In this document: in pieces, positions 5,662 through 42,865 of the stretch
Layout of the letters: each line of letters begins with the position of its first letter
Numbering within the stretch: position 1 is the first letter of the stretch
Assembly (NCBI GenBank): GCA_934500865.1
Contig: CAKSUD010000002.1
Span: forward strand, 1-54,819
DNA: 54,819 nt
Source of the DNA: an uncultured Clostridia bacterium
Lineage (GTDB): Bacteria; Bacillota; Clostridia; TANB77; RGIG9151
Direction: 5' to 3'
Position numbers and translations under genes: made by a program
Notes under the pieces: model-generated
The model's input: the letters and a program-made list of their open reading frames with translations, nothing else
What the model was told of the DNA's origin: nothing
The model's database searches: none

Positions 5662-5715
5662 CACATTTACACCTTTTAAATATAAATATGTATTTAGATG
5701 AAAATGTGGTATTAT
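5662..5715 (+). promoter_or_regulatory. Operator box copy 1 (most degenerate) plus candidate -10, upstream of the AraC regulator gene
   Basis: The box is CACATTTACACCTTTTAAATATAAATATGTATTT (5662-5695). A TGgTATTAT follows at 5707-5715. A second extended -10, TGCTATAAT, lies at 5785-5793 nearer the gene. Confidence 0.5.
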
Positions 5716-5839
5716 AGTTGCGGATTGCAATAACTTTGTGGATTGAATTATATCGAAAAAACATTTGAAAAATCACAGAAAAGATGCTATAATATAATCA
5801 AAGAGTTTTTTATCAATTTTAGTTAAGGAGAGTAGCATA

Positions 5840-6688
5840 ATGCTTAAAGTGCCTCAAAAAGATAATGTAGGTACAGAAGAGTACTTTTATATAGGTGATA
5901 CAGTTATTAACTCTCTTTTTAACGTGTTGCTTGCGGGAATTACTGAGCCTGATAGTGAGTATTTTATATATCATCCTGCATGTAAGCTATGGGTTTTTGA
6001 ATATGTTATTTCGGGGGAAGGCTATATAGTTACTGAGAATAGGACTTATACTGTAACTGAGGGTGATTTTTATGCTATATCCGAAGCAACAGAGTGTTAT
6101 TATTATTCCGATAAAAATAATCCGATGAAAAAGATTTGGATAAACCTTACCGGTAATTTGGTGCGCCATCTTATGCGTGATTACGGACTAAACAATGAGG
6201 TTACAGTTTTAAAATGTGATATTCGTAATTTGTTTGAAGAAATGCTTGAAAACTTTAAAGGTGAAGATAATTACATTATTGCAACGCAATTAAAGATTCA
6301 TGAGATCATTGCAAAAGTATCTCCAATTCATACAAAGAAAGCAAACACAGATTTGATTGAGAATATTCATAATTATATTATTGAAAACAGTAATAAAAAT
6401 TTAGAAGTTGATGTTTTGTGCAAAGTATTCTTTATTTCCCGTGTACACATGACACAATTATTTAGAAAGAAATACGGCACTTCTCCTTACAAATTCTTTA
6501 TAAAAACAAAAATGGAATTGGCAGCGGATATGCTTATTAATACAGATATGTCTATTAAGGAAATAGCTTTGTCGCTATCTTATACTGATCCACATCATTT
6601 CAGTAATGCTTTCAATAAGTTTTTTAACTGTTTTCCAAGAGAATACAGGTTAAAAAACAAAATAGCACCCACTGATAATAACGATTAA
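5840..6688 (+). CDS. AraC family transcriptional regulator (cupin-like sensor domain plus HTH_18)
   Basis: RBS AAGGAG precedes the start. The C-terminal dual HTH reads ...VHMTQLFRKKYGTSPYKFFIKTKMELAADMLINTDMSIKEIALSLSYTDPHHFSNAFNKFF... Confidence 0.9.
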   Translation: MLKVPQKDNVGTEEYFYIGDTVINSLFNVLLAGITEPDSEYFIYHPACKLWVFEYVISGEGYIVTENRTYTVTEGDFYAISEATECYYYSDKNNPMKKIWINLTGNLVRHLMRDYGLNNEVTVLKCDIRNLFEEMLENFKGEDNYIIATQLKIHEIIAKVSPIHTKKANTDLIENIHNYIIENSNKNLEVDVLCKVFFISRVHMTQLFRKKYGTSPYKFFIKTKMELAADMLINTDMSIKEIALSLSYTDPHHFSNAFNKFFNCFPREYRLKNKIAPTDNND

Positions 6689-6695
6689 AACTTAA

Positions 6696-6740
6696 AACAA
6701 TATCAGAATTGTATGTTATCAATTTTGATATTGTTTTTTT
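6696..6740 (+). terminator. Putative intrinsic terminator after the AraC gene
   Basis: AACAATATCA (6696-6705) pairs with TGATATTGTT (6726-6735) and a T-run follows. The stem is AT-rich and the loop is long, so this is only moderate evidence. Confidence 0.5.
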
Positions 6741-6750
6741 GTATACCTTA

Positions 6751-6810
6751 CAAATTTACACCATTTGTGAACAAATATACATTTTTTTTAAAAAACAGAT
6801 ATGATATAAT
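6751..6810 (+). promoter_or_regulatory. Operator box copy 2 plus extended -10 promoter of the deacetylase/oxidoreductase/GH39-like operon
   Basis: The box is CAAATTTACACCATTTGTGAACAAATATACATTT (6751-6784). TGATATAAT lies at 6802-6810. The -10 hexamer starts 21 nt after the box end. Confidence 0.7.
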
Positions 6811-6842
6811 CAAATAAAAAAAGAAAATTTAGGATAGTTATT

Positions 6843-7690
6843 ATGCGATATAGAATTATGCGTTTTCCAAACGGTAAAACAAAGGCTTTGACTTTAAGCT
6901 ACGATGACGGCGTAGTGCAGGATAAGGTACTCGCCAAAATAACTGCCGAATACGGTATAAAATGCACCTTTAATTTAAGTGCCGGCTGGCTTAACCGTAA
7001 AAATCATTTGACCGATGACGAGGTAAAGGAGTATATTTTAGCAAACGGTCACGAGGTTGCAATTCACGGTAACTGCCATATAGCACAGGGTGTCGCATCG
7101 ATTAAGGACGGTATACGTGATATGCTTGACGGTAGACGCAATCTTGAAAATAGGTTTAATAGAATTATTAAGGGGATGGCTTATCCCGATTCAGGTGTCA
7201 ATTATACACAGTTTACTGATTATAGTGAGATAAAAGCCTATCTTCAAATGCTCGGCATAGTCTATGGTAGATCGTCGGGACACGATAATAATAATTTCAG
7301 AGTTCCTACCGATTGGCATAAATGGATTCCTACCTGTCACCATAATAATTCTAATTTATATAGTTGGTTAAATCAGTTCAAAGAGTTAAACAACAAAGAA
7401 GGATATCTTGCACATCTTCATCCAAGACTTTTTTATCTTTGGGGGCATACCTATGAGTTTGAAAATGATAATAATTGGGATGTAATTAAGGAATTTTGCA
7501 AACAGGCAGCAGACAGCAGTGATATTTGGTTTGCTACAATATAGAAATTTATCAATATGTAAAAGCCTTTGAGTCACTCGAATTTAGCGTTGATAATGAT
7601 ATTGTATACAATCCATCGCTTTTTGATGTGTATTTTCGACTTGATAATAATGAATATATGATAAAATCAGGTGAAACGCTTTATTTGTAG
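6843..7690 (+). pseudogene. Polysaccharide deacetylase (CE4/NodB-type) interrupted by a frameshift near 7538-7544
   Basis: NodB motifs LSYDDG and AIHGNCH are present. The frame stops at TAG 7542-7544 after ...IWFATI. The remaining C-terminus (IEIYQYVKAFESLEFSVDNDIVYNPSLFDVYFRLDNNEYMIKSGETLYL) continues in another frame to TAG 7688-7690. One extra A in ACAAT would restore ...WFATNIEIYQYV... Confidence 0.7.
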
Positions 7691-7748
7691 TGAAAATGTT
7701 ATATAATTTTGGAGATAAAAAATTTTAAATTCATATGGAGGTTTTGTT

Positions 7749-8747
7749 ATGTTAAATGCTGCAATAATTGGTTTTGGAGGAATTGCAAAGGGCGCACACC
7801 TTCCGGGCTACAAAACACTTGAAGAAAAGGGAAAGGTAAAGCTTGTTGCTGCTTTCGATATTCGTGAAGAAGCTTTTACTCAGGGCACGCAGATTAATCT
7901 TGCATCATCAGATGCATCTGATAACGAGGGTATACATTTTTATACTGATTTAGAAGAAATGTTAAGTAAGGAGAAAATTGATCTTGTTGACATCTGCGTT
8001 CCTACATATCTTCATAAGCAATATGCTGTTGATATGCTAAATAGAGGTTATCTTGTTTTAAGCGAAAAGCCTATGGCACTCTCATCTGCTGACTGCAAGG
8101 AAATGGTAGCAGCATCTAACGGCAGACTAATGATTGGTCAATGCCTTCGTTTTTCTTCTGAATATATTTATGCTAAAAAGTTGGTGGAAGAGGGTACATA
8201 CGGAAAGCCTACCTCTGCAACTTTTAGAAGACTAAGTGAATCACCTACATGGGGGTGGGATAATTGGTTTATGGATTATAACCGTTCAGGCGGTGTAATC
8301 TTTGATTTGCATATACATGACCTTGATATAGCACGCTTTATTTTTGGTGAACCTAAAAAGGTATCTTGTATTGCAGGAGGTCATCACATTGTAGAAGATG
8401 CTTTTGCACACTCGACTCTTTATTACGATGGTTTTACCGTTTTTGCTGAGGGCAGATGGGATCAAATTAAAATGCCGTTCGCAGCAGATTTTCGTATATC
8501 TTTTGAAAAAGCAAACATTGTATGTTCGGGCGGTCAGGTTACAGTTTATCAATATGATGGCGAAGAGTTTACAGTACCGCTTAACAGTGAAAGTATGTAT
8601 ATGAAGGAAATTGAATATATAACCGATATATTTGTAAATGGAGGAGAAAATACACAAAATCCCCCTGAAAGTGCGGCTGAAAGCATCCGTCTTGCTGAAA
8701 CGCTTAAAGAAAGTGCCAAGAATGACGGCGAAGTACTAAAATTTTAA
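7749..8747 (+). CDS. Gfo/Idh/MocA family oxidoreductase
   Basis: RBS GGAGG precedes the start. It has an N-terminal Rossmann motif AIIGFGGIAKGAHLPGY and the family motif VLSEKPMA. Confidence 0.88.
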   Translation: MLNAAIIGFGGIAKGAHLPGYKTLEEKGKVKLVAAFDIREEAFTQGTQINLASSDASDNEGIHFYTDLEEMLSKEKIDLVDICVPTYLHKQYAVDMLNRGYLVLSEKPMALSSADCKEMVAASNGRLMIGQCLRFSSEYIYAKKLVEEGTYGKPTSATFRRLSESPTWGWDNWFMDYNRSGGVIFDLHIHDLDIARFIFGEPKKVSCIAGGHHIVEDAFAHSTLYYDGFTVFAEGRWDQIKMPFAADFRISFEKANIVCSGGQVTVYQYDGEEFTVPLNSESMYMKEIEYITDIFVNGGENTQNPPESAAESIRLAETLKESAKNDGEVLKF

Positions 8748-8763
8748 TCAAGAGGTGCAAAAA

Positions 8764-10110
8764 GTGAAAAACATATCTATTGATTTTACTAAAGATTGCG
8801 GTAAATTAAAGCCTATGCATGCCGTTAATAATGGACCTATTTATAAGTTCTCTGCTGACCAAAGAATTACAAATATGGATGCGTGGAAAGAAGCGGGCAT
8901 ACCTTATGCCAGAACTCACGATTCCGCCTTTTGCAGTACATACGGCGGACCTCATTGTGTTGACGTAAATCTTATTTTTACAAATTTTGATGCAGACCCT
9001 TATGATGCTGCAAATTACGATTTTGCTTGTACGGATGAGTATTTTAAGGTTATTAATTATTCGGGCACAAAGATATTTTATAGATTAGGTGCCAGTATTG
9101 AGCACTGGGTTAAAAAGTATAATACATTGCCACCAAAAGATTTTACCAAATGGGCAGTTATATGTGAGCATATAATTAAGCACTATACTGAGGGTTGGGC
9201 AGACGGCTTTAAGTATGATATTGAATACTGGGAAATCTGGAACGAGCCTGACCTTGACCCTGATGATGCTACTAATAAGCGAACTTGGGGCGGTACAAAG
9301 GCACAGTTTTTTGATTTTTATGCAACTGCCGCAAAGCATCTTAAAGAGTGCTTTCCGCATCTTAAAATAGGCGGTCCTGCGCTCTGCTGTGACTTGGATT
9401 GGGCAAGACATTTCCTTAAAGAAATGAAAAAGCGTGGCGCTGCTGTTGACTTCTTCTCTTGGCACCGCTATGCTTATGAGCCTGTATTTATTGCTGAAAC
9501 AGCACAGACAATTCGTAACATTTTAGACCAAGAAGGTTTTGAGAATACAGAGAGTATAAACAACGAGTGGAACTATGTAAAGGGATGGTCGGGTGATGAG
9601 TGGTTATATTCACTCCGCAGTGAAAAGAACTTAAAGGGTTCTTCCTTTATTCTTGGTACAATGTGCGCTTGCTCTTATGCTCCTATTGATATGCTTATGT
9701 ATTATGATGCCCGTCCTTGTGCTATGAATGGTATGTTCGCTACGGATTTTGTCTGTGATTGTTTAAAAGGATATTATCCGTTTAAAATGTTTAATGAGCT
9801 TTATAAATTGGATAATGCAGTAGCGGTAAAAAATGATACTAATTTGTTATCTGCCGCCGCTGTTAGCGAAGATAAAGCTGCTATTGTATTCACACATTTC
9901 TGTGATAACGATGAAACACCTACCGAAAAAGTTAAACTTAATATGCAAGGTTTTGGCGGTAAAAATGGTGTTAAAGTAAGTTGTTATTTGCTCGGCTGGG
10001 ATAAAGATTTAGAACTTGTTAAGGAAGAAATATTATCGGGCGATAATTTTGCAACAGTTCTTGAAAGCGAACTCTATAGCAGTTATCTTGTGGTGCTTGA
10101 AAAGATTTAA
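8764..10110 (+). CDS. Clan GH-A TIM-barrel glycoside hydrolase, GH39-like
   Basis: YWEIWNEPDLD matches the acid/base region and SINNEWNY is a candidate nucleophile region. The GTG at 8764 lies 8 nt after AGAGG. The ORF track starts at GTG 8755, which abuts the RBS. Confidence 0.65.
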   Translation: MKNISIDFTKDCGKLKPMHAVNNGPIYKFSADQRITNMDAWKEAGIPYARTHDSAFCSTYGGPHCVDVNLIFTNFDADPYDAANYDFACTDEYFKVINYSGTKIFYRLGASIEHWVKKYNTLPPKDFTKWAVICEHIIKHYTEGWADGFKYDIEYWEIWNEPDLDPDDATNKRTWGGTKAQFFDFYATAAKHLKECFPHLKIGGPALCCDLDWARHFLKEMKKRGAAVDFFSWHRYAYEPVFIAETAQTIRNILDQEGFENTESINNEWNYVKGWSGDEWLYSLRSEKNLKGSSFILGTMCACSYAPIDMLMYYDARPCAMNGMFATDFVCDCLKGYYPFKMFNELYKLDNAVAVKNDTNLLSAAAVSEDKAAIVFTHFCDNDETPTEKVKLNMQGFGGKNGVKVSCYLLGWDKDLELVKEEILSGDNFATVLESELYSSYLVVLEKI

Positions 10111-10119
10111 GGTGATATT

Positions 10120-11136
10120 ATGTTAAAGGTTGCAGTTATTGGTTGCGGAAGTATATCCTGTATGCATTTAGAACCGGCGGTAGCTTTGGAAGAAGCAGAG
10201 CTTGTTGCGGTTTGTGATATAAAGCCTGATAGGGCAGAGCATGCTGCTCAAAAATATAACGCTAAGCCGTATACAGATTATATGGGAATGTTCGAAAAAG
10301 AACAACTTGATGCGGTGCATATTTGTCTTCCTCATTATTTACATACAAAGGTTGCTTGTGACGCCTTTAAAAAGAGGATAAATGTACTTTCCGAAAAGCC
10401 AATGAGCATAAAGTACGAGGATGCCATAGAAGCGGTAGAATTAGCAGAAAAATGCGGCGTTAAGTATGGAGTGATTTTTCAGTGCCGGTATAACACACCT
10501 TCAATGCTTGTAAAACAGCGAATTGAGGACGGTAAACTCGGCAAAGTAAAATGTGGAAGAACAACCCTTACATGGTATCGCTCCGATAATTACTATGACC
10601 ATTCCGATTGGAAAGGTACATGGGAAAAGGAGGGTGGCGGCGTAATAATCGACCAAGCCATACACTCTATCGATCTTGCTAACTGGATGATAGACAGTAT
10701 ACCTATAGAAATTCAGGCATCGCTTCATAATCGCAACCACGAAAATATGGTAGTTGAGGATACGGGTGAAGGAATTATAAAGTATGAAAACGGAGTTCTT
10801 TTGTCCTTTTATGCTATGAATAATTATTTTGTTGACGAACCTATTGAAATAAGACTTGTTTGTGAAAATGGTAAGGCTATTTTCTCCTATGATAGAGCCG
10901 AAATCAGTTATAATGACGGCACATTTGAGGCGGTAAACAATATGCCGCAAAAAATGGTTTCGTATACGGGCGGTAAGGATTATTGGGGCACACAACACGC
11001 TGTTCAAATCAGACAGTTCTACCGTTCTGCATTAGGTCTTGAAGAACTTGAAATTTCAGGCAAAGAGGCTCTTAAAATTCAAAAAATCATTTGTGAAATT
11101 TATAAAAATGGCATAAAATATCTTAATAATAAATAA
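10120..11136 (+). CDS. Gfo/Idh/MocA family oxidoreductase (second copy)
   Basis: It has the Rossmann motif VAVIGCGSIS and the motif VLSEKPMSI. It is a paralogue of the 7749 gene. Confidence 0.88.
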   Translation: MLKVAVIGCGSISCMHLEPAVALEEAELVAVCDIKPDRAEHAAQKYNAKPYTDYMGMFEKEQLDAVHICLPHYLHTKVACDAFKKRINVLSEKPMSIKYEDAIEAVELAEKCGVKYGVIFQCRYNTPSMLVKQRIEDGKLGKVKCGRTTLTWYRSDNYYDHSDWKGTWEKEGGGVIIDQAIHSIDLANWMIDSIPIEIQASLHNRNHENMVVEDTGEGIIKYENGVLLSFYAMNNYFVDEPIEIRLVCENGKAIFSYDRAEISYNDGTFEAVNNMPQKMVSYTGGKDYWGTQHAVQIRQFYRSALGLEELEISGKEALKIQKIICEIYKNGIKYLNNK

Positions 11137-11148
11137 TTGCATTGTGCA

Positions 11149-11177
11149 GGCAGAATGTTATGTCATTCTGCCTTTTT
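11149..11177 (+). terminator. Rho-independent terminator
   Basis: GGCAGAATG (11149-11157) pairs with CATTCTGCC (11164-11172) and TTTTT follows. Confidence 0.85.
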
Positions 11178-11240
11178 GTTATATGACGGATTTTTGATGA
11201 TATAACAGTAAAGTTTTAGATAAAACTGCAAAAATACATA

Positions 11241-11300
11241 CAAATTTGCACCTTTTGTTATCAAATATGTATTTATTTTTCTAAACATATATATTATAAT
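11241..11300 (+). promoter_or_regulatory. Operator box copy 3 plus -10 promoter of the long transporter/enzyme operon
   Basis: The box is CAAATTTGCACCTTTTGTTATCAAATATGTATTT (11241-11274). TATAAT lies at 11295-11300 and again starts 21 nt after the box end. Confidence 0.7.
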
Positions 11301-11334
11301 TTTTTTATGATTTAGCAACTAGGAGTTGTATGTT

Positions 11335-13242
11335 ATGAAATTACGATATCCAGCGGTACCTATTGTTACTTGTACCCCTGATTTTAGTCTTTGGTCGACA
11401 AGTAATAATTTGACCGACTCAGATTTACAGCACTGGTCAAATGCAAGACAGCCTTTAAGAGGTGTGCTTAAAATAGATGGTAAGTCTTATGGGTTTCTAG
11501 GTAATACCGAATGTGAAAAAATGACACAGACAAATTGTAATGTTGATGTGTTTTCTACGGTTTATAGCTTTACCGCAAACGAGGTGGATCTAACTCTTAA
11601 ATTTACAACACCACTTCTTTTGGATGATTTAAAGGTAATGGCAAGACCGATTACTTATGTTGATATTGAGTGTGTGCGTAAAGATGGACAAAATACACCC
11701 ACTACAGTAGAACTTACAATGTTTGACAACGTGTGTGTGTTTGAAGGCGAAGAAAATGCATCTGTTGCTTGGACATCAAATGAATATGGATGTGTTTCTG
11801 CAAAGGTAGGTAACAAGGAGCAGAAACCTCTTTCATACGATGGAGATATGAAACCAACTAATTACGGTTATGCTTATATATCCGTAATTGAAAATACCGA
11901 TAAAGCTTCTGCACACGTGAACAAACTTTCAGATAAGAACGAAAGACATAGCATAACAGTTTCTGCCACAACCAATGATGGTGGTAAGTTTAATTTTATT
12001 TTGGCTTATGACTCAATTTATTCTATTGAGTATTTTGGCGAAAAGCTTGATTGCGTTTGGAAAAATGAAGTCGACACAATGGAAAAACTAATATCTATTG
12101 CTTTTAAAGAGCGTGAGCATATTTTAGAACGGTGTCAAAAGTTTGCTGCGGAATTAAAGGATGAAGCAATTGAAGAAGGTGGAGAAAAATACTGTGACTT
12201 GCTTACTCTTGCGTACCGCCAGACAATAGGTGCTCATATAATGGCCGAGGATAATGATGGTAATGTGCTCTTTATTTCGAAAGAATGTGGTAGTGGCGCA
12301 CACGGTGCAACGGTAGATGTTACATATCCGTCAACACCTCTTTTCCTTAAATATTGTCCTGAACTTATAAAGGGAATGGTTAGACCAATTTTTCGTTATG
12401 CTAAAACAGAGGAATGGTCAAATCTTTATAAATTTGCACCCCATGATGCAGGCTTTTATCCGAAAATAAATGGTCAGACATATCCGGAGGGTAGAGGACT
12501 TGACGCTGAAACGCAGATGCCTGTTGAAGAATGTGCTAATATGCTTGTTATAAGTGCGACACTTTCCAAAGCTGACGGAAATGCAGATTTTGCAAAGACA
12601 GAACGTCCACTCCTTAAACAGTGGTATGATTATTTGCTTGAGTTCGGTTATGACCCCGGTGAACAACTCTGTACAGACGATTTTGCAGGAAGGCTTTCTC
12701 ACAACTGCAATCTTTCAATTAAGGCGATAATGGGTATTGCATCCTATGGAATTATTTGTGATTATTTGGGTGAAAAGGAAGAAGCTGAAGAAGCTATGAA
12801 TATTGCTAAGGCCTTTGCACTTAAGTGGGTAGAGGACGCAAAGGCAGAAAACGGAACCTATCGCTTGTCATTTGATATTTCTGATAGCTTTAGTTTGAAG
12901 TATAATGCTATTTGGGATATGCTTTTTGACACAGAAATTTTCCCGAAGGATTGCTTTAAATACGAACTTAAATCTTACATAACAAACCATATGGATAAAT
13001 ACGGGACGCCTCTTGACAATCGTAAGGACTATGCTAAATCTGACTGGATTTTATGGTGTGCAACTATGATGGAATCAAGAGAAGATTTTGAAAAAATGAT
13101 TTCACCTTTATGGGATTTTTATAATGAGTGTGAGGCAAGAATACCTATGACAGATTTATATCACACAAGCGATGGAACTGTTCAACAGTTTAGAAACAGA
13201 ACTGTACAAGGCGGTTTATTTATTAAACTTTTAAAGTTTTAA
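11335..13242 (+). CDS. Glutaminase-A-like putative glycoside hydrolase (DUF5127/DUF4965/DUF1793 architecture)
   Basis: The N-terminus LRYPAVPIVTCTPDFSLWS...HWSNARQPLRGVLKIDGKSYGFLGN matches the signature I recall for this family. The length is about 635 aa. AGGAG lies upstream, and TTG 11326 is an alternative start. Confidence 0.65.
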   Translation: MKLRYPAVPIVTCTPDFSLWSTSNNLTDSDLQHWSNARQPLRGVLKIDGKSYGFLGNTECEKMTQTNCNVDVFSTVYSFTANEVDLTLKFTTPLLLDDLKVMARPITYVDIECVRKDGQNTPTTVELTMFDNVCVFEGEENASVAWTSNEYGCVSAKVGNKEQKPLSYDGDMKPTNYGYAYISVIENTDKASAHVNKLSDKNERHSITVSATTNDGGKFNFILAYDSIYSIEYFGEKLDCVWKNEVDTMEKLISIAFKEREHILERCQKFAAELKDEAIEEGGEKYCDLLTLAYRQTIGAHIMAEDNDGNVLFISKECGSGAHGATVDVTYPSTPLFLKYCPELIKGMVRPIFRYAKTEEWSNLYKFAPHDAGFYPKINGQTYPEGRGLDAETQMPVEECANMLVISATLSKADGNADFAKTERPLLKQWYDYLLEFGYDPGEQLCTDDFAGRLSHNCNLSIKAIMGIASYGIICDYLGEKEEAEEAMNIAKAFALKWVEDAKAENGTYRLSFDISDSFSLKYNAIWDMLFDTEIFPKDCFKYELKSYITNHMDKYGTPLDNRKDYAKSDWILWCATMMESREDFEKMISPLWDFYNECEARIPMTDLYHTSDGTVQQFRNRTVQGGLFIKLLKF

Positions 13243-28600: not shown

Positions 28601-28990
28601 TTTACTGAAAGAGACGGTATAGATGTTCGTATACGTGACCAATTTGGTTCTGACGTAAAGTATATGGGTGCTATTAGTATAGGTCTTAAGGTTGCTTATC
28701 CTGATACCAATACCTTCATACGCGGCACAGGCGAATATGAAGTTGTTGCAAAACTTTCTATGACAAGACTTTCATTGTGGGTGAACGGTGTTTGCGTTAT
28801 CAACGATTATAAACTTCACAATATACTTAACTTTGATAACAACGATTACCGTATTGATATTCTTGATTTTGCACCAGGTATATTATTTAACGGTGAAACA
28901 GGTACTGTCGAAGAAACGAGTGTTTGGTGTGCAAAGGAAGACGTTAAGCCTACACGTGATACTGAGTACAGTTACCCGACTGCTTCTTAA
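25601..28990 (+). CDS. Secreted 1129-aa multi-module protein (A-A-C-B-B module order), with no recognisable catalytic domain
   Basis: It has a signal peptide and two 180-aa A modules. A LamG-like middle module follows, then two B modules homologous to the one in the preceding gene (YDGPSIALG...FTAQDGIDFRIT...YPDTDS...VWVNE and YGGPAIRLA...FTERDGIDVRIR...YPDTNT...LWVNG). Confidence 0.8.
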   Translation: MRKKLLKDMFCVVLSIALVLTSTQLWNLVLVASNAIPSFDDEKHSKVLDVSSVLFTENKVTYPLADIKDKSKATFSETTIVRNDNNILNTTPVIILAETDSNLTDATRGNFKNSYIVMWAAVSGGYAIGLLNSDTNGPAVFPNSFLKFANQQSLTGFPGYSGQYPNGGYAIPNNLKVTAKVEGGKLSVWVTSDGNTKEVLREYSSSDYNITGSAAGFLMSQKISNNYNYSALVWTEKNNVNNGIADKPQFDSDTQVIAQEIKKSTFTETKTVYPLTNIIDKSKITFTEQVIQRDDNNVLNTTPIVLLAETDSDITHDTRGNFKNSHIVLWAAATGGYSVALLNSDCTGPAVWIDSFNEFAGQPSVTGFEGWGGVYPNGGQILPNTLTVTTKFENGKISVWLTDGDNTIQILANYKSDKFNITGAAIGQLTSQKISNNYSYTAKAWTAKDNYSEGLPIFDKNIHTDILDMTGIASADWVGFEYNETTGGKMWTDLISGGNSSLRTIDSTLTYKADNIYGSGSIKYKTSGYLPNQAYHYAYIAIAKISEGSKVGYLALKFAAGGQSVKLSFITPAGESTAEHAVLSTFGSVNTSIGTTHSFAYRINTENHLLSIWLNGIAVLTDFVIDSKYTVEDLAVGSGRFYASFQLDNYRVWRSDPVPEIIIPVPEFNPETDVNLAPYAQAAASNVSGVLKDEMFILSQTQNIIGSAFFRKVNLEGDGTMYYHAVINNDIKNHSSDGVYDGPSIALGSVTYDENGKSGYLVLRFTAQDGIDFRITARNGTDAVYLGAITSMKFKYPDTDSAVRNDDTNYVLDVKMSRKSISVWVNEKCIVNDVKFNSFGADTTKKVTVNDFMPGLICVNYTGTVSDFWFWCSKEDAPELNSSAAAEKPVFNKETQTNVTSKMLAVIAGKDGEFKLEKNGTLSIKSNNVGEGEGTDNGAYFSAGIKRIGTMYMRTVIKPERTLDETIATTAIYGGPAIRLANATASVDDSGDQHGFLDILFTERDGIDVRIRDQFGSDVKYMGAISIGLKVAYPDTNTFIRGTGEYEVVAKLSMTRLSLWVNGVCVINDYKLHNILNFDNNDYRIDILDFAPGILFNGETGTVEETSVWCAKEDVKPTRDTEYSYPTAS
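25763..26302 (+). repeat. A-module copy 1 (coding repeat, 180 aa)
   Basis: It runs FTENKVTYPL...RNDNNILNTTPVIILAETDS...GNFKNSYIVMWAA...KLSVWV...SQKISNNYNYSALVW. Confidence 0.85.
26396..26935 (+). repeat. A-module copy 2 (coding repeat, 180 aa)
   Basis: It runs FTETKTVYPL...RDDNNVLNTTPIVLLAETDS...GNFKNSHIVLWAA...KISVWL...SQKISNNYSYTAKAW. Confidence 0.85.
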
Positions 28991-29010
28991 ATGAAAAGGA
29001 GATAATATTT

Positions 29011-29229
29011 ATGAAGACAATATTTTTAAATAGAATGTTTATGAATATTCCTGCTGCAGTGCGTGATGGTGATATTTATTATGTGTCGGCCGAGGAAGCA
29101 GATAAGCTTAAAAATCTGCTTACAGTATTTTCGTTTTTGGCAATAGTTGGCGCTGTTTTGGTTGCAACAATAGTTGTATTATATGTTGTAAAATCACACA
29201 TAGCGAAGAATAAAAGAAAAAGGCGGTGA
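29011..29229 (+). CDS. Small (72 aa) membrane protein with a C-terminal TM helix and basic tail, function unknown
   Basis: A strong RBS AAAGGAGA lies 8 nt upstream. The TM helix is FSFLAIVGAVLVATIVVLYVV and the tail is KNKRKRR. Confidence 0.6.
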   Translation: MKTIFLNRMFMNIPAAVRDGDIYYVSAEEADKLKNLLTVFSFLAIVGAVLVATIVVLYVVKSHIAKNKRKRR

Positions 29230-29238
29230 GGATACAAG

Positions 29239-32200
29239 ATGATGAAGTTATTTAAAAAAAATACTAATGCAATAATAAGTGTAATATTAGCTTTGGCTGT
29301 ATTTGTTTCTTCAACTGTCGGTGTTTTAGTTGTTACCGGAATACTTGATAAAAGTTTTTTAATTGATGTTTTAAAACCTTTTTCCGATAAAAATGATACT
29401 CATGATGATGTGCCGGATGACGAGCCCGATTATCCCGATATTCCTGATTATAATGAACCCGACAGTCCTTGGATACCCGAGGATGAGGCACCGTCTGTAA
29501 ATCCAGGCTATACTACAACCTCTGAAATAGGTGAGGTTTTCCACGACCAAGGTGGAATTTATATGTCACCCATTCAGCCTAAAAATACTGAACGTGCTAC
29601 AATGCGTTTGCGTGTAGAGCGTAACAATGTAACCTGGGCAAAGATTAATATAAGTGATGACTATGGAAAATCATGGATATCCTATCCTCTGAAATATAAT
29701 GCCATTGAGAAAAATGGGAATTTTGAGGATTGGGCAATTATGATACCTAAGCAAGCAGATCCCTATTATTACTATTTTTCGATTGGTAATGACGGCGAAG
29801 AAACAACACAATATTATGGTATTTACGGTATGACTACCGATAAAATTACAAGTTATAGCGATTGCTTCTTTGTACGTCCTGATTCAGACGTTCCTGAGTG
29901 GTCTTACGGTAAATATTGGTATGGTATAAACACTAATGCGTTTTATAATGCGGACCCTATGAATGATCCATCTGGCCAATATATCGATATGGCGTTAGGT
30001 CAGCAAATGAACAGCAATCACTACCGTGCAATGTTCGGCGGAGATTTGCAAGGCGTTCTGGAAAAACTGGATTATATTAAAAGTTTAGGCGTTGAAGGTG
30101 TATATCTTAATCCTTTAATGCCTTCATGGGATGCAGCCGGTTACGGTTGGCTTGAAACATATAGCATAGCTTCTCGCAACGGTAATGAGGAGGCACTTGC
30201 AAATCTTTGTAAAGCTATACATGACAGTGATATGCGTATAATGCTTGACAATGTTGTAGCGCTTTGGCCGGCTAACAGTGTTTGGGCAAATGACCCGAAT
30301 TACAATATTTATCCTTTTGAAGGCTCATTGGCTTCTAAAACAAGTAGATATTTTGATATGTTCTTCTATAATATGTGGCCCGGTGATTATTTAAAACGTT
30401 TTGAGTCTATAGCTCCCGATTATAGCGGAACAAATGCTAAAAAGGCTATTTATAGCGAAAAGGGCTCACTTATTCCAAGGTATAACTCTAATCCTTTTAA
30501 TGTTGATGCTATAAGATATGACTCGTCTGTGTATATTTGGGGCAGCGATACACCTTCGGAACAGATTGTCAAGGAAATGCAGACAGCAGCTAAAAACGCT
30601 AATCCAAATCACTTATTTATAGGTGAAAATGATAAATTCAGATATTACGACTGGGATACTACTTGGAATCTTCATTATGCTGATGCTCAAAGAGATATTT
30701 TCACTTTCAAAAGTACATTTTCGCAATACAAGAGAAATGCAATTAAGTATATGCAATCTATAAATAGAGCATCGGCTCTTTCAACATATAACTATATAGA
30801 TATGATTGACCGTGACAGAATGCGTACTACTGTAAAAACGCAGTGGTTGCTTAATGCAGGTACAATTATTCAGATGACATATTTAGGCTCTCCTGCACTT
30901 CGTTTTGGTAACGAAACTGCAAGCGAAAGCACTATGTCACACAGACTTAATGCATTTAACTGGGACGAAAGCACCTGGAATTATGAAAACTATAATATGG
31001 TTAAGGCACTCGGTCAGTTAAGAAACGAATATGATTGCCTTAAAACAGGTGTTATTAAGTGGGGCGAAATTAATGATGGTGAACAATTTATGTCCTTTGC
31101 ACGCTTCGATAACAAAAATACTGTAATAACAGCAATAAATCGCACCGAAGACACTGTTGAGCATACTATGGAAGTCAGACAGTTCGGCGTCAAAGACGGG
31201 GCAGTTCTTACCGATTATTTGACTGGCAAAAACTATACTGTTAAAAATGGTAAAGTTTCAGTAATTCTTATGCCTGGTGGTACGGTATTTGTAAACGATG
31301 GCAAAACAGCTGATTATCGTTGTAAGTATGAAGTTTATGACATTGATGTTAAGAATGCAAATATAATCACAACCTCACCGAACACTTTTGTTGTGACAGC
31401 TAATAAGGGTTCGTTAGATGGTAAAAATGATAAGGCAATGTTTGCTACCATCCCCTTATTTGGAAATTTTGGTTTTGAAGCTAATATTACTACCAATGAC
31501 AGTTGCGGTGCCTTGGTTGTAAGAGCGTCAAAAGATTCGAATGCTTTGGCATACAGTATAGTAATAGACAACGGAAAACTTACCGTTTATGCAAGAACAG
31601 AGAAAGGCAAGAAGCCAAAGACACTTAAATCGTTAAATTTCAAGGATGGCAGTAAGATAGAAATAGTAAGAAATAATTCGAACAAATTTGCACTTTACCT
31701 TGACGGTGAAATGGTTTCTGGAACTACCGCAAATATTGCTATGGGCAATAAAGTATATGTGGGTTTTGCAGCTTTGGACGGCACGATAAGTACTAATAAT
31801 ATTTCTATCAATAATGCTACATCAAAGTATTGTTCTGACTTTAATTCTACTGTTTTGCCATCAACACTTACTCTTTCTGGTAATGGAGTTTTAGAAAATG
31901 GCGAACTTGTTTTAACCTCTAAAAAAACATTGTTCTCTAAGAGTGAGGATGCCATTTGCTATGCTGAAACTAAAGAAGGCGATTGGACAGCAAAAACGAC
32001 ATTTTTAGCAGAAATTAACAAGGATTATTCCATTGCAGGATTAATTGCAAAATCAAGTGATAACAACAAAGTATTTGGCGGCCGCACTTTAATTGATGGT
32101 AAACAGAAGATAGTATTATCCAGAATTGTTAACGATAAGTTGGCTGTATATGCATCTGTCGACGATACAAAGTCTAATTCTGCACTCACAATTCAACTTC

Positions 32201-33426
32201 AAAGAACGGGCAACTACTTTACACTTATTTATCGTTATGAAAATTCCGATTGGAAGCAACTTGACGGACGTATTTTTACAAGTATGAGTGATCCGAATGT
32301 CGGCATATATACAAGTGGCGATAATGTTGTGGCTAAATTTGATTCGTTTACACTTGGTAATATGCTCGACGGCGGAACTTCTGTAAATACTCCCCATTCA
32401 ATTATTCCTTGGGCGACTAAAACTCAAGGTCAATATGATAATGTTTCTTGGCAATTCCCGTCATGGAAAGTTACAGGTAATGTTGATAACTGGGATTATG
32501 TATCCGGTGGTATTGAACAGAGCTCAAAAACTGTTGACGAGTATCTTTACGATATAAGAAGTGAACATACTGATTTTAGGGCAGAATGTACAATTCAGTT
32601 CAAGAGTAAGACCGGATATGTTGGAATGTTGCTTCGTAAAGTAAATACTGCGACAGATATGAATAACGGTTATCTTGTAAAATTAAATCACGGCGGTAAA
32701 CTTCAACTTCTTAGGGGTAGCACAGTTTTAGCAGAAACAAAAGTTAAAATACCTAAAATGGGTCTTAGATTAGTTGCCGAATGCTCAGGTAATACCATTG
32801 CCGTTTATCATGGGACTAATTTAGAGTTAGCGTTTACAGTACAGGATAGTACCTATATGAAGGGCTACTTTGGATTTATGACTTCAAGGGAAAACGCAAT
32901 AATCGGCAACTTTGATATATCTCTTAATGAATATAAATCATGGACAGCAGTAGCACCTAATTATCTGGGTGACAACAATATTTGGAGATTTTCCGCTGAT
33001 GCTATAAATCTCAATATCGGCAAATCTTATGCGGTGGCTTCATTTAAAGGTTATGCCTATACTAATGTTGATGTGTCTGTTCAAATAACCGCCACACAGG
33101 ATGAAACAGGTTACTCAGGTTTAACCTTTGGACTATCTGAAGGCATTTTACCGAAAGATAAAGGTGTTTCAGTTGCTATCAATGGCACTAATAGTTTAGT
33201 TGTTTTCAAGAATGGTGAAAAGGTCGCTTTTGCCGATATTACAATTAGTGATAAGGTATTGCTTAAAGTGACCGTACGGGATGGCAAATATACCGTATAT
33301 CTTGATGGCAATAAAACTCTTGAGTGGACAGACTGCGAATTTAGCGGCGGTGCCATCTCTCTTTCAGGATATAATACCAAGACTGAATTTAAAAACTTCA
33401 TCGTAAAAGATATGGTAAACGGATAA
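29239..33426 (+). CDS. Membrane-anchored divergent GH13-like (alpha-amylase superfamily) enzyme fused to several LamG/DUF1080-like modules (1395 aa)
   Basis: It has an N-terminal TM anchor and an acidic Pro-rich linker. An amylase N-domain-like segment reads FHDQGGIYMSPIQP. The core reads GGDLQGVLEKLDYIKSLGVEGVYLNPL, RIMLDNVVAL, VDAIRYDSS, LFIGEN and MTYLGSPALRFGNE. C-terminal modules end in motifs such as KGYFGFMTSRENAIIGNFDI. Confidence 0.75.
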   Translation: MMKLFKKNTNAIISVILALAVFVSSTVGVLVVTGILDKSFLIDVLKPFSDKNDTHDDVPDDEPDYPDIPDYNEPDSPWIPEDEAPSVNPGYTTTSEIGEVFHDQGGIYMSPIQPKNTERATMRLRVERNNVTWAKINISDDYGKSWISYPLKYNAIEKNGNFEDWAIMIPKQADPYYYYFSIGNDGEETTQYYGIYGMTTDKITSYSDCFFVRPDSDVPEWSYGKYWYGINTNAFYNADPMNDPSGQYIDMALGQQMNSNHYRAMFGGDLQGVLEKLDYIKSLGVEGVYLNPLMPSWDAAGYGWLETYSIASRNGNEEALANLCKAIHDSDMRIMLDNVVALWPANSVWANDPNYNIYPFEGSLASKTSRYFDMFFYNMWPGDYLKRFESIAPDYSGTNAKKAIYSEKGSLIPRYNSNPFNVDAIRYDSSVYIWGSDTPSEQIVKEMQTAAKNANPNHLFIGENDKFRYYDWDTTWNLHYADAQRDIFTFKSTFSQYKRNAIKYMQSINRASALSTYNYIDMIDRDRMRTTVKTQWLLNAGTIIQMTYLGSPALRFGNETASESTMSHRLNAFNWDESTWNYENYNMVKALGQLRNEYDCLKTGVIKWGEINDGEQFMSFARFDNKNTVITAINRTEDTVEHTMEVRQFGVKDGAVLTDYLTGKNYTVKNGKVSVILMPGGTVFVNDGKTADYRCKYEVYDIDVKNANIITTSPNTFVVTANKGSLDGKNDKAMFATIPLFGNFGFEANITTNDSCGALVVRASKDSNALAYSIVIDNGKLTVYARTEKGKKPKTLKSLNFKDGSKIEIVRNNSNKFALYLDGEMVSGTTANIAMGNKVYVGFAALDGTISTNNISINNATSKYCSDFNSTVLPSTLTLSGNGVLENGELVLTSKKTLFSKSEDAICYAETKEGDWTAKTTFLAEINKDYSIAGLIAKSSDNNKVFGGRTLIDGKQKIVLSRIVNDKLAVYASVDDTKSNSALTIQLQRTGNYFTLIYRYENSDWKQLDGRIFTSMSDPNVGIYTSGDNVVAKFDSFTLGNMLDGGTSVNTPHSIIPWATKTQGQYDNVSWQFPSWKVTGNVDNWDYVSGGIEQSSKTVDEYLYDIRSEHTDFRAECTIQFKSKTGYVGMLLRKVNTATDMNNGYLVKLNHGGKLQLLRGSTVLAETKVKIPKMGLRLVAECSGNTIAVYHGTNLELAFTVQDSTYMKGYFGFMTSRENAIIGNFDISLNEYKSWTAVAPNYLGDNNIWRFSADAINLNIGKSYAVASFKGYAYTNVDVSVQITATQDETGYSGLTFGLSEGILPKDKGVSVAINGTNSLVVFKNGEKVAFADITISDKVLLKVTVRDGKYTVYLDGNKTLEWTDCEFSGGAISLSGYNTKTEFKNFIVKDMVNG

Positions 33427-34899: not shown

Positions 34900-34920
34900 T
34901 TTTATTTGAGGCGATTTTTT

Positions 34921-35751
34921 ATGAATGTTGGTGTAGTAATTTTACATTGCAGAGAAGGATTAGAGGGGAAATTTAAAGTTTCAGCTGAGCAAGGCTTTAA
35001 GCACTGCCAGTTTATAAGCTGGTCTCCATCCCTTTGGACAGATGACGAGGCTGAAAGGGTTTCTTCGTACAGCAAGAAATACGGCATAGAAATCACTGCT
35101 TTCTGGTGCGGTTGGGAAGGTCCTAATGCATGGAACTTCTATGAAGGTCAGGCAACACTTGGTTTAGTGCCCGAAACTTACCGCCATGCACGTATTAAAA
35201 ATTTGGTAAACGGCTCTGATTTTGCCAAAAAACTCGGCGTTACCGATGTTGTTACACATATGGGATTTTTGCCTGAGAATCCCAACGAGAGGCTTTATAC
35301 CGATGTTGTTTATGCAATTAGATGCATAGCCCGTCATGCTGCTCAGAATGGTCAACGACTTTTGTTTGAAACTGGTCAAGAAACACCTGTTACACTTCTC
35401 AGAACTATTGAAGATGTAGCTACAGGTAATCTCGGTGTAAATCTTGACCCTGCTAACCTTATTCTTTACGGTAAAGCAAATCCCGTTGATGCTTTGGATG
35501 TTTTTGGTAAATATGTTTACGGTTTTCATGCAAAGGATGGCTTTTATCCTACAAACGGAAGAGAGCTTGGACGTGAGGTGCCTGTTGGTGAGGGTAAGGC
35601 AAATTATCCTATGCTTATCAAAAGATTGCACGAATGTGGCTATAATGGCTCTCTTACCATAGAACGTGAAATTTCAGGCGAACAGCAAACCAAGGATATC
35701 CTAAACACAAAGGTATATTTAGAAAAATTATTGGCTGAGATTGAAGCGTAA
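34921..35751 (+). CDS. Sugar phosphate isomerase/epimerase family protein (xylose-isomerase-like TIM barrel)
   Basis: It contains segments typical of the family (VVTHMGF, LLFETGQE, GVNLDPANLILYG, HAKDG...GEGKANYPMLIKRLHECGYNGSLTIERE). The ATG at 34921 lies 9 nt after GAGG. TTG 34906 is an alternative start. Confidence 0.8.
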   Translation: MNVGVVILHCREGLEGKFKVSAEQGFKHCQFISWSPSLWTDDEAERVSSYSKKYGIEITAFWCGWEGPNAWNFYEGQATLGLVPETYRHARIKNLVNGSDFAKKLGVTDVVTHMGFLPENPNERLYTDVVYAIRCIARHAAQNGQRLLFETGQETPVTLLRTIEDVATGNLGVNLDPANLILYGKANPVDALDVFGKYVYGFHAKDGFYPTNGRELGREVPVGEGKANYPMLIKRLHECGYNGSLTIEREISGEQQTKDILNTKVYLEKLLAEIEA

Positions 35752-41300: not shown

Positions 41301-41504
41301 AGTAAAATTTATTATAATGAGCTTATTAAGAATAAAACTGATGAGTATTTGCTTACGGTCCAATGTACAAACGGTGAATACAACTGTGCTATAAACGGTG
41401 AATATCTCTTTAGTTTTGGTTTTAAGGAAAAAATGGGTGGCGCAGTATCGCTTTGTACCGAAACAGCCGATGCATTGTTTGAAGACTTTAATATTATGGT
41501 TTAG
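38349..41504 (+). CDS. Cytoplasmic divergent GH13-like enzyme fused to LamG/DUF1080-like modules (1051 aa)
   Basis: It has no signal peptide. It contains FHDQGYKYFYPLEP, CGDIEGVKEKLDYIKDIGADAVYMNPL, RVMLDAVVVF, IDAWRFDSS, LFLGEN, YTHFDTHDVPRL and MTYLGSPTLYYGDE. C-terminal modules end in ...SGYIGYFGGKYKVLNFMV. Confidence 0.75.
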   Translation: MDILFHDQGYKYFYPLEPKNTDSVTIRLQADRKLKSVVLLLKEKDSKQIEEIELKYEKQDVIERFSLYVCEIPPKTDPYRYCFKSETEDGTVKYLNVFGESDELNIKSGFYVIPDFTTPDWSKGIFWYSVLPHAFRNGNLLNDKTGEIEAVPFGGGVCHPYCSRYCGDIEGVKEKLDYIKDIGADAVYMNPLWTCKDAAGYGPDNFDMLDPAYCNDKELSEFVKTAHEKDLRVMLDAVVVFSTTTSNLCNQNDEWIQKGALVDQNSKFCDYFHFKRWPDEYQNYFASLLFDFNKDIVKDYLYRNEDSHLQRYLKPPYNIDAWRFDSSDLLWGEGLNAVQIAADIKTYLKKINPDMLFLGENYGNMDEGVWETCWNMHHLFNLREWILKKYDMKFFLWKMRMSLNERSRPLALSMYTHFDTHDVPRLYPQVDEKERLLSGIICQMTYLGSPTLYYGDETGDKNLNIGYYHNFNWDTDSWDTDFYKYYKLLGTLRHENNVFKKGIVRVGLIDNERELLSYGRFDQNGATVTVVNPNKVIKGLEIPVDIYDISDGATLTDIISGMKYTVENGVITADVLGGGAVYVLDLREDFPSLLQITYPDTLKVNGIKTPERDWNYRIELLKKSGDFKLVVGDNAENGIYLSYTNKALSFGRIVSDEKIPFFTENANTDDITLQIERIGTRYRAFYCVDDGIWRLLGENLFASFNSPSLYINGIVEKQSFGNIAFGGNDLFVPISYKGFDGEWDKLNSSRDLLKLQTLDSADNYAYVNGGIERVADGFGTFVYHKSLKNFKINVSLLPLDDGECGILFGADSNAQGGYKFFLNKNGEYSLCNNGGSIIDGIVPIDEFGADFIIEAFANSLVLYHNNKVIFFDRLGDVSGYIGYFGGKYKVLNFMVCDLSEGVTTQNVFWNIKGNKAAFKGTGLLSVKGRAYSDFKASVKIKIAENTEKLGCAGILTAANESLLPRYDGLFFAISSDGNLVVKSNSKIYYNELIKNKTDEYLLTVQCTNGEYNCAINGEYLFSFGFKEKMGGAVSLCTETADALFEDFNIMV

Positions 41505-41548
41505 CGGTAAAACGTTCATTAAAATTAATAACAAATACATAGTGGTGA

Positions 41549-42649
41549 ATGATCATGACTATAATTTACGGAAAAGATAACAATATAAATTTCAAATTCA
41601 GTGAAGGTTGCGATTTTGTTTTAGAATTAGGAAAAGAACGCAAGAATGACGAAATCCACATTTTACAGCTTACAGATATGCAGATTATCGATTCTTCACG
41701 GCAACGAATCGAGCGTAGACTTCGTCACGATGAAATCGCAGCTTGGGGAAGAGATACCATTAAGGGCAACTGCTATGACCATATAAGCAGCCTTGTTGCC
41801 CAAACAAACCCCGATTTAATATTTATAACGGGTGATATCGTTTACGGCGAGTTTGATGACAGCGGTGAGGTTTTAAAGGATTTTATAGGCTTTATGGATA
41901 GTTTTGAAATTCCTTGGACTGCCGTTTACGGAAATCACGATTACGAATCTAAAATCGGTATAGAAAAGCAGTGTAAGATGTACGAAAACGGTAAATACTG
42001 TATGTTTAAAAGGGGTACTGTTAGCGGAAATTCTAACTTTACACTCGGTATTTCTGTTTGCGGTGAACTTAAAAGGGTAATGTATATGCTCGATTCCCAC
42101 GGTGCTTTAAGAAAGCGGGACTTGCTTCCCGACCAGATAGACTTTATGAAAGCTAAGGCTTCTGCCATTAAAGAAAAATACGGTATGATAGCCGAGGTTT
42201 TTTTGGCTTTTCATATTCCTGTTGATTTTTTTAAAAAAGCTGCCTACTCAAAGGGTTATGCTACCGACGAAAAACCGCACTTTAATATCGGAGTAGATGT
42301 TAAAGCAAAAGATGGCGATTTCGGCTTTGATTATGAAAACGGCGGTACTGGCGGATATGTAGAAACCAACGAAAGCTTTGCCGAGTTTTTAAAAATTGCT
42401 AACATCAAGGGTGTTTTTGTTGGTCATAATCATAGCCGCTGTACTGTAATAGAATATAACGGTATAAAATTGGCATACGGTCTTAAAACCGATCAATACG
42501 ATTATCATACAAGGGGCATTATAGGTGGCACACTTATAACAGTAAACCGTGAAAACAATGATTTTAGGGTTCAGCATATTCAGTCACTTGTGAAATTCAA
42601 TCCTTTTCCGGCACTCGCTCCCTCGTACAAAGACTTTTTTGTGGTATAA
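41549..42649 (+). CDS. Metallophosphoesterase (calcineurin-like), cytoplasmic
   Basis: The motifs occur in canonical order: ILQLTDMQ, ITGDIVYGE, VYGNHDYE, AFHIP and VGHNH. Confidence 0.85.
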   Translation: MIMTIIYGKDNNINFKFSEGCDFVLELGKERKNDEIHILQLTDMQIIDSSRQRIERRLRHDEIAAWGRDTIKGNCYDHISSLVAQTNPDLIFITGDIVYGEFDDSGEVLKDFIGFMDSFEIPWTAVYGNHDYESKIGIEKQCKMYENGKYCMFKRGTVSGNSNFTLGISVCGELKRVMYMLDSHGALRKRDLLPDQIDFMKAKASAIKEKYGMIAEVFLAFHIPVDFFKKAAYSKGYATDEKPHFNIGVDVKAKDGDFGFDYENGGTGGYVETNESFAEFLKIANIKGVFVGHNHSRCTVIEYNGIKLAYGLKTDQYDYHTRGIIGGTLITVNRENNDFRVQHIQSLVKFNPFPALAPSYKDFFVV

Positions 42650-42805
42650 AATAGAAATAAATAATCGTAAAAGATTAAGGACGAAGGATTTAAATTCAAT
42701 GGGATATATATTTTATAACAAAAGGGATTTTTAAAGGCTCAAATTACATTGAAAAACTTAGATAAGTATTTTCTGTTTTGACCCCCAAAAAAATAAAATA
42801 TCATA

Positions 42806-42865
42806 CAAATTTACACCTTTTGTGAACAAATATGCATTTGTTTTGTTTGCTTTTACTGATAAAAT
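42806..42865 (+). promoter_or_regulatory. Operator box copy 4 plus extended -10 promoter of the dockerin-protein gene
   Basis: The box is CAAATTTACACCTTTTGTGAACAAATATGCATTT (42806-42839). TGATAAAAT lies at 42857-42865. The -10 hexamer starts 21 nt after the box end. Confidence 0.7.

Follow-up and report, generated by a model that had tools for sequence, protein, structure and literature searches.

Analysis of positions 1 to 54,819 of contig CAKSUD010000002.1 from an uncultured Clostridia bacterium (hereafter the window) revealed a 34-bp box that is probably the operator of the AraC-family regulator encoded on the same contig at 5840-6688, a dimer of which would activate three transcription units of a glycan-utilization region in the class II manner.

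Regarding the proposed mechanism, the cupin domain of the regulator would sense the ligand and dimerize the protein, each subunit would contribute two helix-turn-helix (HTH) motifs, and the dimer would sit on two direct half-sites of ~17 bp each, offset from start to start by 21 bp. The site (~-68 to -29) would take the place of a missing -35 hexamer, with the regulator bringing in sigma-A RNA polymerase at promoters whose sole core element is a -10, mostly of the TGn-extended type. The genes switched on in this way would be those of a CE4-GFO-GH39-GFO operon, a 31-kb GtaA/ABC/GH13 operon and a unit of a dockerin-like gene and a GH13 gene. The regulator itself would be made from a box-independent promoter (P2), and a box-dependent promoter (P1) would provide positive autoregulation in relatives. 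From the layout of the half-sites, their locking to the -10 element, the cupin and dual-HTH composition of the protein and the published geometry of such promoters, we infer that a ligand-responsive AraC dimer, namely the 5840-6688 protein, binds the box and activates rather than represses transcription from starts downstream of it. The inducer would presumably arise from breakdown of the target glycan.

Copies of the Box in the Window

Scanning of both strands detected exactly four copies of the box, all on the plus strand, at 5662, 6751, 11241 and 42806, and all four are co-oriented with the genes downstream of them. Taking the copy at 42806-42839 as the reference, the numbers of mismatches to CAAATTTACACCTTTTGTGAACAAATATGCATTT are zero for this copy, two for the copy at 6751-6784, four for that at 11241-11274 and seven for the most degenerate one (CACATTTACACCTTTTAAATATAAATATGTATTT, 5662-5695), which precedes araC. 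The next best 34-mer of the window has 12 mismatches to CAAATTTACACCTTTTGTGAACAAATATGCATTT, no 34-mer with 12 or fewer mismatches was detected on the minus strand, and dinucleotide shuffles of the window gave no match to the box at up to three mismatches. Similarly, under a position weight matrix (PWM) derived from 11 distinct sites, the copies score 54.9 bits (42806), 49.9 bits (6751), 48.8 bits (11241) and 40.0 bits (5662); since the fifth-best position on either strand falls to 4.7 bits, the window has only these four sites.

In the reference copy, the half-sites CAAATTTACAC and CAAATATGCAT are identical at 8 of 11 bases, with a start-to-start distance of 21 bp. Three copies are followed by a -10 hexamer that begins exactly 21 nt past the end of the box, two of these hexamers being of the extended type: TGaTATAAT at 6802-6810 (hexamer 6805-6810) behind box 6751, TATAAT without the TG at 11295-11300 behind box 11241, and TGaTAAAAT at 42857-42865 (hexamer 42860-42865) behind box 42806, all on the plus strand. 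Thus the first-pass annotation of this DNA, which had reported four plus-strand copies with direct half-sites phased by 21 bp and this fixed -10 position in three of them, two with a TG, is borne out by direct reading, by the mismatch and PWM scans and by the self-similarity of the site profile described below. Its further statement that the boxes occupy the only long intergenic regions does not hold, as the 204 bp of non-coding DNA at 7545-7748 are without a box. Another apparent gap, at 28991-29238, contains a small open reading frame (ORF) at 29012-29230 for a membrane protein of ~72 aa with one hydrophobic segment, in front of a gene for a 1395-aa GH13 protein.

Promoter Architecture

Alignment of promoters from the window and from related loci extends the site to ~40 bp rather than 34, of the form TA-CAAATTTACACCTTTT-nnnn-ACAAATATGCATTT-ATTTT. 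With the first base of the box as position 1, conservation is high in the block from -1 to 16 (TACAAATTTACACCTTTT), low in the variable block 17-20, high again at 21-34 (ACAAATATGCATTT), moderate in the ATTTT block at 35-39 and low across the variable positions 40-48, and it is raised at positions 52-53 (TG) and 55-60 (the -10 hexamer). The promoters of seven non-orthologous genes have only these conserved blocks in common. Conservation thus takes the form of two blocks of ~17 bp with ~4 variable bp between them and a phasing of 21 bp; the self-similarity of the profile columns is greatest when they are shifted directly by 21 positions (1.81; no other offset exceeds 1.46), and at the level of the consensus the half-sites agree at 14 of 21 positions.

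Regarding the spacing, the gap between box and -10 hexamer is 20 nt in 18 of the 21 assessable sites, which come from seven promoter classes and 11 loci, the exceptions having gaps of 19, 21 and 14 nt. By chance, -10-like hexamers occur at 0.021 per intergenic position. A TGn extended -10 is present in 14 of 18 promoters, and the -35 element is poor in all 18, the hexamer located 16-18 nt before the -10 agreeing with TTGACA at only 2-4 of 6 positions. When the -10 hexamer is taken as -12 to -7, the site has the span given above, the box ends at ~-33 and the ATTTT tail reaches ~-28. The promoters therefore appear to be of the class II type by their sequence, with two half-sites phased by ~21 bp, the proximal one at or over the -35 region, at a fixed distance from the -10. 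The first-pass annotation had likewise placed the box over the -35 region in the geometry of class II AraC/XylS activators, and the fixed gap and the poor -35 elements across loci agree with this.

The same layout is known from characterized promoters. XylS binds two imperfect direct repeats at Pm, at -70/-56 and -49/-35, with 21-bp phasing and with the proximal repeat abutting or overlapping the -35 element (PMC9804782). FoxR of Salmonella uses the repeats CGCATAG-N14-CGCATAG at -62/-56 and -41/-35 of foxA (PMC9804782), and the sites of CphR at the Rhodococcus cphA2A1 promoter extend from -69 to -35 and overlap the -35 element by 2 bp (PMC6205950). The FoxR and CphR repeats, which are 21 bp apart, have been verified experimentally, and their inversion or mutation abolishes activation (PMC9804782, PMC6205950).

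The location of the box over the -35 region would also suit a repressor, and the same protein might use the same box to block constitutive extended -10 promoters until an inducer releases it, the more so as the TGn elements of 14 of the 18 promoters could work without a -35. Some members of the AraC family do act as repressors. This alternative is nevertheless unlikely, as repression needs only overlap with the promoter, whereas 18 of the 21 sites share a gap of precisely 20 nt and all have the same orientation; moreover, the site reaches ~-68, far upstream of the core contacts of the polymerase, and the proven activators XylS, FoxR and CphR sit at the same coordinates. Strict spacing and orientation thus favor contact with the polymerase over repression.

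A second alternative, that the box is not a transcription factor site at all but a promoter cassette that has spread by duplication or recombination and either provides an A/T tract like an UP element or contains a sigma-A promoter of its own, can draw on the A/T-richness of the box, its location in the UP-element zone and the coincidence of rearrangement breakpoints with box edges. Inside the box, TTTACA at positions 5-10 is separated by 17 nt from T(A/G)(C/T)ATT at positions 28-33, and the promoter scan flags TTTACA-17-TACATT in box 6751. However, in most copies the embedded "-10" (TGCATT, TGTATT) does not have the critical A as its second base, and on this ground an embedded sigma-A promoter was rejected, while a separate and better -10 with TG is kept at a fixed distance downstream. 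The conserved C1, C9, C11, C12 and R29/Y30 exceed what sigma-A or the alpha-CTD (the C-terminal domain of the polymerase alpha subunit) would need, and the box is found only along with one AraC orthogroup, which makes the cassette explanation highly improbable. A promoter for an alternative sigma factor was also considered and rejected in view of the conserved TGn and the TATAAT-like -10.

Several observations weigh against reading the box as the operator of a class II activator. A weaker dyad, CAAATTT...AAATATG, centered on position 15 and with a score of 1.69, rivals the direct repeat. Extended -10 promoters can act without a -35, which leaves activator dependence inferred, and the transcription starts are placed from the -10 hexamers alone. 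The copy next to araC in the window breaks the spacing geometry, and the copy count covers this element, with the host genome lying outside it. Many of the comparison sites are orthologous and only moderately diverged, the GtaA promoters of the window and of locus L024 being alike outside the box too, so that the sites found across loci, 22 in total, are not 22 independent observations.

Co-occurrence of the Box and the AraC Gene

The 22 sites are spread over 11 distinct loci, each site being directed at the gene downstream of it. Every AraC ortholog of at least 62% identity that was fetched (62-85%; loci L024, L026, L062, L063, L064, L066, L067, and L068) has a box beside its gene, and this adjacency persists across differing gene order, strand and neighbors, in agreement with the link between the boxes and the adjacent AraC gene made in the first-pass annotation. 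No box was found near the genes of paralogous AraC proteins of 43% and 33% identity.

Seven gene classes stand behind boxes: araC, CE4, CE2/GDSL, GFO oxidoreductase, GtaA-like/ABC, dockerin-like and GH13. A box precedes araC in L026, L062, L064, L066, L067, and L068, and a weak one does so in L024. The CE4 ortholog of L067 has a box orthologous to that at 6751 in the window, and boxes orthologous to that at 11241 precede the GtaA-like genes of L024 and L063. A gene for a 1070-aa CE2/GDSL esterase follows a box in L062 and in L024, where it is on the minus strand and divergent from araC, and boxes precede GFO oxidoreductase genes in L026, L064, and L068. Regarding the dockerin-like gene, homologs of 54-56% identity were fetched from L069 and L070. 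In L069, a box orthologous to that at 42806 precedes the homolog and a second one precedes its giant GH13 gene; L070 has a variant box of the type seen in L063. The box link of the distant dockerin-protein gene, which had been assigned to the same regulon from the window, thus recurs in diverged loci.

The variant box (L063, 1061-1094; L070, 559-592) keeps half-site 1 as CAAATnTACACTTTTT and has ATGAATnnGTATTT as half-site 2, and it goes with an AraC of 65% identity (P0008).

The box could also be a real operator that is read by another factor, such as the HTH_36 protein encoded at 5233-5493, the sigma-r4 protein encoded at 51311-51880 or a chromosomal regulator, in which case araC would be a mere target. 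The boxes of L069 and L070, where no araC is present in the fetched parts of the contigs, would fit such a factor. However, AraC is the sole regulator that stays adjacent while the neighbors vary (peptidase M20, ParB_N, CE2, GtaA), genes of the conjugative backbone are missing from the comparison loci, and the -10 elements are of the sigma-A type with TG, unlike those of an alternative sigma factor. A site of ~40 bp with a 21-bp direct repeat, moreover, suits a dimer of two-HTH subunits. Since the AraC gene alone accompanies the box from one context to the next, control by another factor is very unlikely, and the AraC protein is retained here as the candidate binder.

Locus L026 contains, in addition to the boxed genes, a second AraC paralog (P0010, 43% identity) at 5214-6038 and a gene for a 2280-aa multi-domain rhamnosidase at 6181-13023. 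Both are boxless and lie in the interval from araC to the GFO gene that has a box. Because the box is absent there, the paralog presumably has an operator of its own; inspection by eye of 4970-5214 and 6038-6181 gave nothing convincing for such a site.

The AraC-Family Regulator

The proposed box binder is encoded on the plus strand at 5840-6688 and is a protein of 282 aa with an N-terminal cupin domain and two C-terminal HTH motifs. Pfam matches include AraC_binding (6.2e-9, residues 51-125) and Cupin_2 (9.5e-5) in the N-terminal part and HTH_18 (4.5e-20, residues 193-270) and HTH_AraC (1.4e-10) in the C-terminal part, while matches in the PDB are to the DNA-binding domains of MarA, SoxS, RamA, XylR, and AdpA. 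With a dual-HTH C-terminal domain and an N-terminal cupin, the predicted protein has the domain composition of the AraC/XylS family. The NCBIfam AraC model NF007860 aligns over its full length (residues 40-274) with 67.1 bits; as this is below the equivalog cut-off of 208, the protein is not an ortholog of E. coli AraC. Among the box-sharing orthologs both recognition helices are conserved; the paralogs, which lack the box, have different ones.

Distribution of the Box and of the Regulator

Box patterns were scanned against genome_contigs (185,579 species-representative genomes, 596 Gb) and the JGI metagenomes (metagenome_contigs). The source element is in neither collection, and the scans therefore bear on the spread of the box elsewhere, not on copies in the host chromosome. 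The degenerate core ATTTRCACCNTTT-N6-AAATATNNATTT gave 13 single matches in the 596 Gb of species genomes, and a slightly looser core gave 32 single matches in the metagenomes. All of them have at least 7 mismatches to the 34 positions of the full box, are chance-like and come from archaea, Flavobacterium, Mycoplasma, and other unrelated organisms. The sole Clostridia match of the genome scan (L006, Oscillospiraceae metagenome-assembled genome contig JALEVO010000098.1, 2718-2748) sits between a small dockerin-protein gene and a divergent gene for a substrate-binding protein (SBP), near rimP and nusA; lacking both an AraC gene closer than 8 kb and a -10 at +21, it is probably a chance match and was treated as such.

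A common dispersed repeat, which the first-pass annotation had named as one of the findings that would undo its interpretation, was thus looked for, and the collections, neither of which holds the source element, returned chance-like matches only. An origin as a dispersed repeat of the REP (repetitive extragenic palindromic) or MITE (miniature inverted-repeat transposable element) kind was rejected on the same result and on the presence of only four copies, all co-oriented, in 54.8 kb.

The AraC protein itself is rare, with 13 relatives among 5.8 billion clustered proteins, of which ~9 are orthologs at 62% identity or more. ENA or Logan metagenome assemblies are the source of every ortholog at 62-85% identity, and the name of one record points to the Hadza gut.

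Comparison With Characterized Systems

The proposed pair of operator and regulator extends the textbook class II kind of the AraC/XylS family rather than changing it. Like the proposed activator described here, XylS of the Pseudomonas putida TOL plasmid is an activator of this family with an N-terminal effector and dimerization domain, and its gene shares a mobile element with the catabolic genes under its control. The XylS half-site TGCA-N6-GGNTA is, however, unrelated to CAAATnTRCAyyT, similarity between the proteins is limited to the DNA-binding domain, and XylS serves a pseudomonad in the use of aromatics, whereas the present system belongs to a Gram-positive gut anaerobe and a glycan. FoxR and CphR differ in motif, ligand and taxon, and have one target promoter compared to three to seven promoter classes here.

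E. coli AraC binds araI1-araI2, two direct half-sites of 17 bp with 4 bp between them, the proximal one overlapping the -35 element. The similarity to the present system includes the order of domains, cupin and then dual HTH, and the blocks of ~17 bp separated by ~4 variable bp, but no sign of a distal O2-like site or of DNA looping as in the pBAD system is seen at this locus. Gram-positive polysaccharide utilization loci (gpPULs) with AraC-type regulators are said to have been described in Roseburia and Eubacterium rectale by Sheridan et al. in 2016. They resemble the present locus in combining glycoside hydrolases, an ABC (ATP-binding cassette) sugar transporter and a regulator in a gut Firmicute; compared to them, the operator and promoter architecture can be read directly at this locus, which rides on a conjugative element.

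What sets the system apart is its carriage on a mobile element and its occurrence in a very rare, uncultured lineage of gut Clostridia. The analysis provides a regulatory map for the 45-kb locus, in which a single sensor would control three to four transcription units through one operator consensus. With sensor, operators and catabolic genes together on a conjugative element, the circuit would be self-contained and could work in a new host. The pair is orthogonal to known systems and its motif is very clean, so that it might serve as an inducible switch for gut Firmicutes once the inducer has been found.

Promoters of the araC Gene

Two candidate promoters precede araC in the window, both on the plus strand. 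P1 has the extended -10 TGgTATTAT at 5707-5715 (hexamer 5710-5715), with a gap of 14 nt to box 5662 instead of 20. P2, at 5765-5793, is a boxless and near-consensus sigma-A promoter (TTGAAA-17-TGcTATAAT, 11 of 12 positions, with TG), and it is conserved in all six aligned orthologous araC upstream regions. The orthologous P1 consists of the box, 20 nt and TGnTATTAT (L062, L066, L067, L068, L026, and L064), and alignment with these shows that 6 bp have been deleted between box and -10 in the window (5696-5709). The deletion and the degenerate box are common to all contigs with an identical AraC that cover the region, with the exception of the assembly L023, whose sequence parts from that of the window at precisely 5694/5695, on the 3' edge of the box.

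Positive autoregulation through P1 is thus apparently ancestral. A shift of 6 bp puts the site on the opposite face of the helix, and autoregulation of this kind has probably been lost in the window, where P1 is probably inactive and araC expressed from P2. The first-pass annotation had described the araC copy as the most degenerate of the four, which stands, and had taken its different spacing to suit autoregulation, which probably does not: the spacing reflects the 6-bp deletion, the gap in orthologs being the canonical one. An intrinsic terminator with an 18-bp stem and a T-run follows araC on the plus strand at 6694-6737, as positioned by the terminator scan.

Transcription Units and Gene Content

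The locus is a 45-kb glycan-utilization region with three GH13 enzymes, two of which have modules resembling 3-keto-disaccharide hydrolases. The components expected of a gpPUL are present, namely glycan enzymes (the three GH13, GH39-like, rhamnosidase-like, and CE4), an SBP with four permeases, and AraC. The first-pass annotation had proposed that the boxes define at least three regulated transcription units, and the plus-strand segments 6843-11136, 11335-42649 and 42988-50502 are put forward as these units. Terminators lie directly before boxes 6751 and 11241, which fits with separate units.

Unit 2 (6843-11136) contains, according to Pfam, genes for a CE4 deacetylase (6843-7544), a GFO/IDH/MocA oxidoreductase (7749-8747), a GH39-like protein (8755-10110) and a second GFO/IDH/MocA oxidoreductase (10120-11136), and is closed by a plus-strand intrinsic terminator at 11148-11173. 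Its extent is deduced from the flanking terminators and the lack of a further box.

Unit 3 (11335-42649) would be an operon of ~31 kb with ~22 co-directional genes, its proposed extent being in keeping with an interior in which no box and no convincing plus-strand terminator were found. By Pfam, these genes encode a GtaA-like 6-hairpin protein, a 929-aa SBP, four ABC permeases, a Yip1/NHL protein, a DUF5696 protein, two GH13 proteins, a xylose-isomerase-like TIM protein, a rhamnosidase-like protein and a metallophosphoesterase. Named relatives of the GtaA-like protein, from Ruminiclostridium, Cohnella, Paenibacillus, and Clostridia metagenome-assembled genomes, are at most 48% identical to it.

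Unit 4 (42988-50502) contains the dockerin-like gene (42988-44523) and a gene for a 1961-aa GH13 protein (44617-50502), with a hairpin and T-run inside the unit at ~44553-44590. The protein encoded at 42988-44523 is secreted, has 511 aa with two internal repeats of ~200 aa, and is dockerin-like at its C-terminus by sequence pattern (GDLNADLEINILDLVRAKK ... SAELIQMRQYLLG). No Pfam dockerin was detected in it even at E <= 1; its homologs (P0018, L069) do match Pfam Dockerin_1. A dockerin-like C-terminus was not detected in the 1961-aa GH13 protein.

Two GFO/IDH/MocA genes (within 7749-11136), a gene for a xylose-isomerase-like TIM barrel (34906-35751) and several 3-keto-disaccharide-hydrolase-like modules occurring with GH13 (24442-33426 and 44617-50502) are present in the region. 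This gene content hints at an oxidative, 3-keto-glycoside step in the breakdown of an alpha-glucan-containing, rhamnosylated and acetylated polymer.

Conjugative Element and Rearrangements at the Boxes

Both flanks of the glycan locus mark it as cargo of a conjugative element. On the upstream side are a TraG/VirD4 coupling-protein gene split by an intron (468-1811 and 4476-5246) and then the HTH_36 gene (5233-5493). The intron is a complete group II intron (1884-4509; Rfam D1-D4-5, 181 bits; domain V/VI, 55 bits) with a reverse transcriptase (RT) ORF at 2506-4380. The downstream flank contains the sigma-r4 gene (51311-51880), a pemK RNA motif (52053-52121) and a serine recombinase gene (52570-53754).

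Rearrangements in this cargo have occurred at boxes. A box-promoter remnant precedes the GFO gene at 7749 on the plus strand (7690-7707), where only the 3' CTTT of the box, the spacer and TATAAT (7702-7707) are left; the relatives L026, L064, and L068 keep the full box at this promoter, and by alignment the breakpoint in the window lies inside the box. In L069, a terminator and a box promoter precede the giant GH13 gene, and the counterpart in the window is 94 nt with a hairpin only. The gene after araC varies among lineages, yet it always begins with a box.

These rearrangements suggest an exchange of modules headed by the cassette. It is conceivable, though doubtful, that the box promoter acts as the portable junction of a modular and horizontally mobile regulon, with CE4, CE2/GDSL, GFO, GtaA/ABC, giant rhamnosidase, dockerin-like and GH13 modules, each headed by the cassette, being shuffled from lineage to lineage by recombination in or beside the box. 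If so, any module joining the locus would be wired automatically to the AraC sensor that the element carries, and the circuit would travel by conjugation.

A second group II intron fragment is located directly past the last cargo gene (50632-50819; Rfam D1D4-3, 36.7 bits, just over the gathering score); it has no RT ORF and may be a remnant that marks the boundary of the cargo. On the other side, contig L014 extends the upstream flank with Abi_2 and Toprim/DUF3991 genes.

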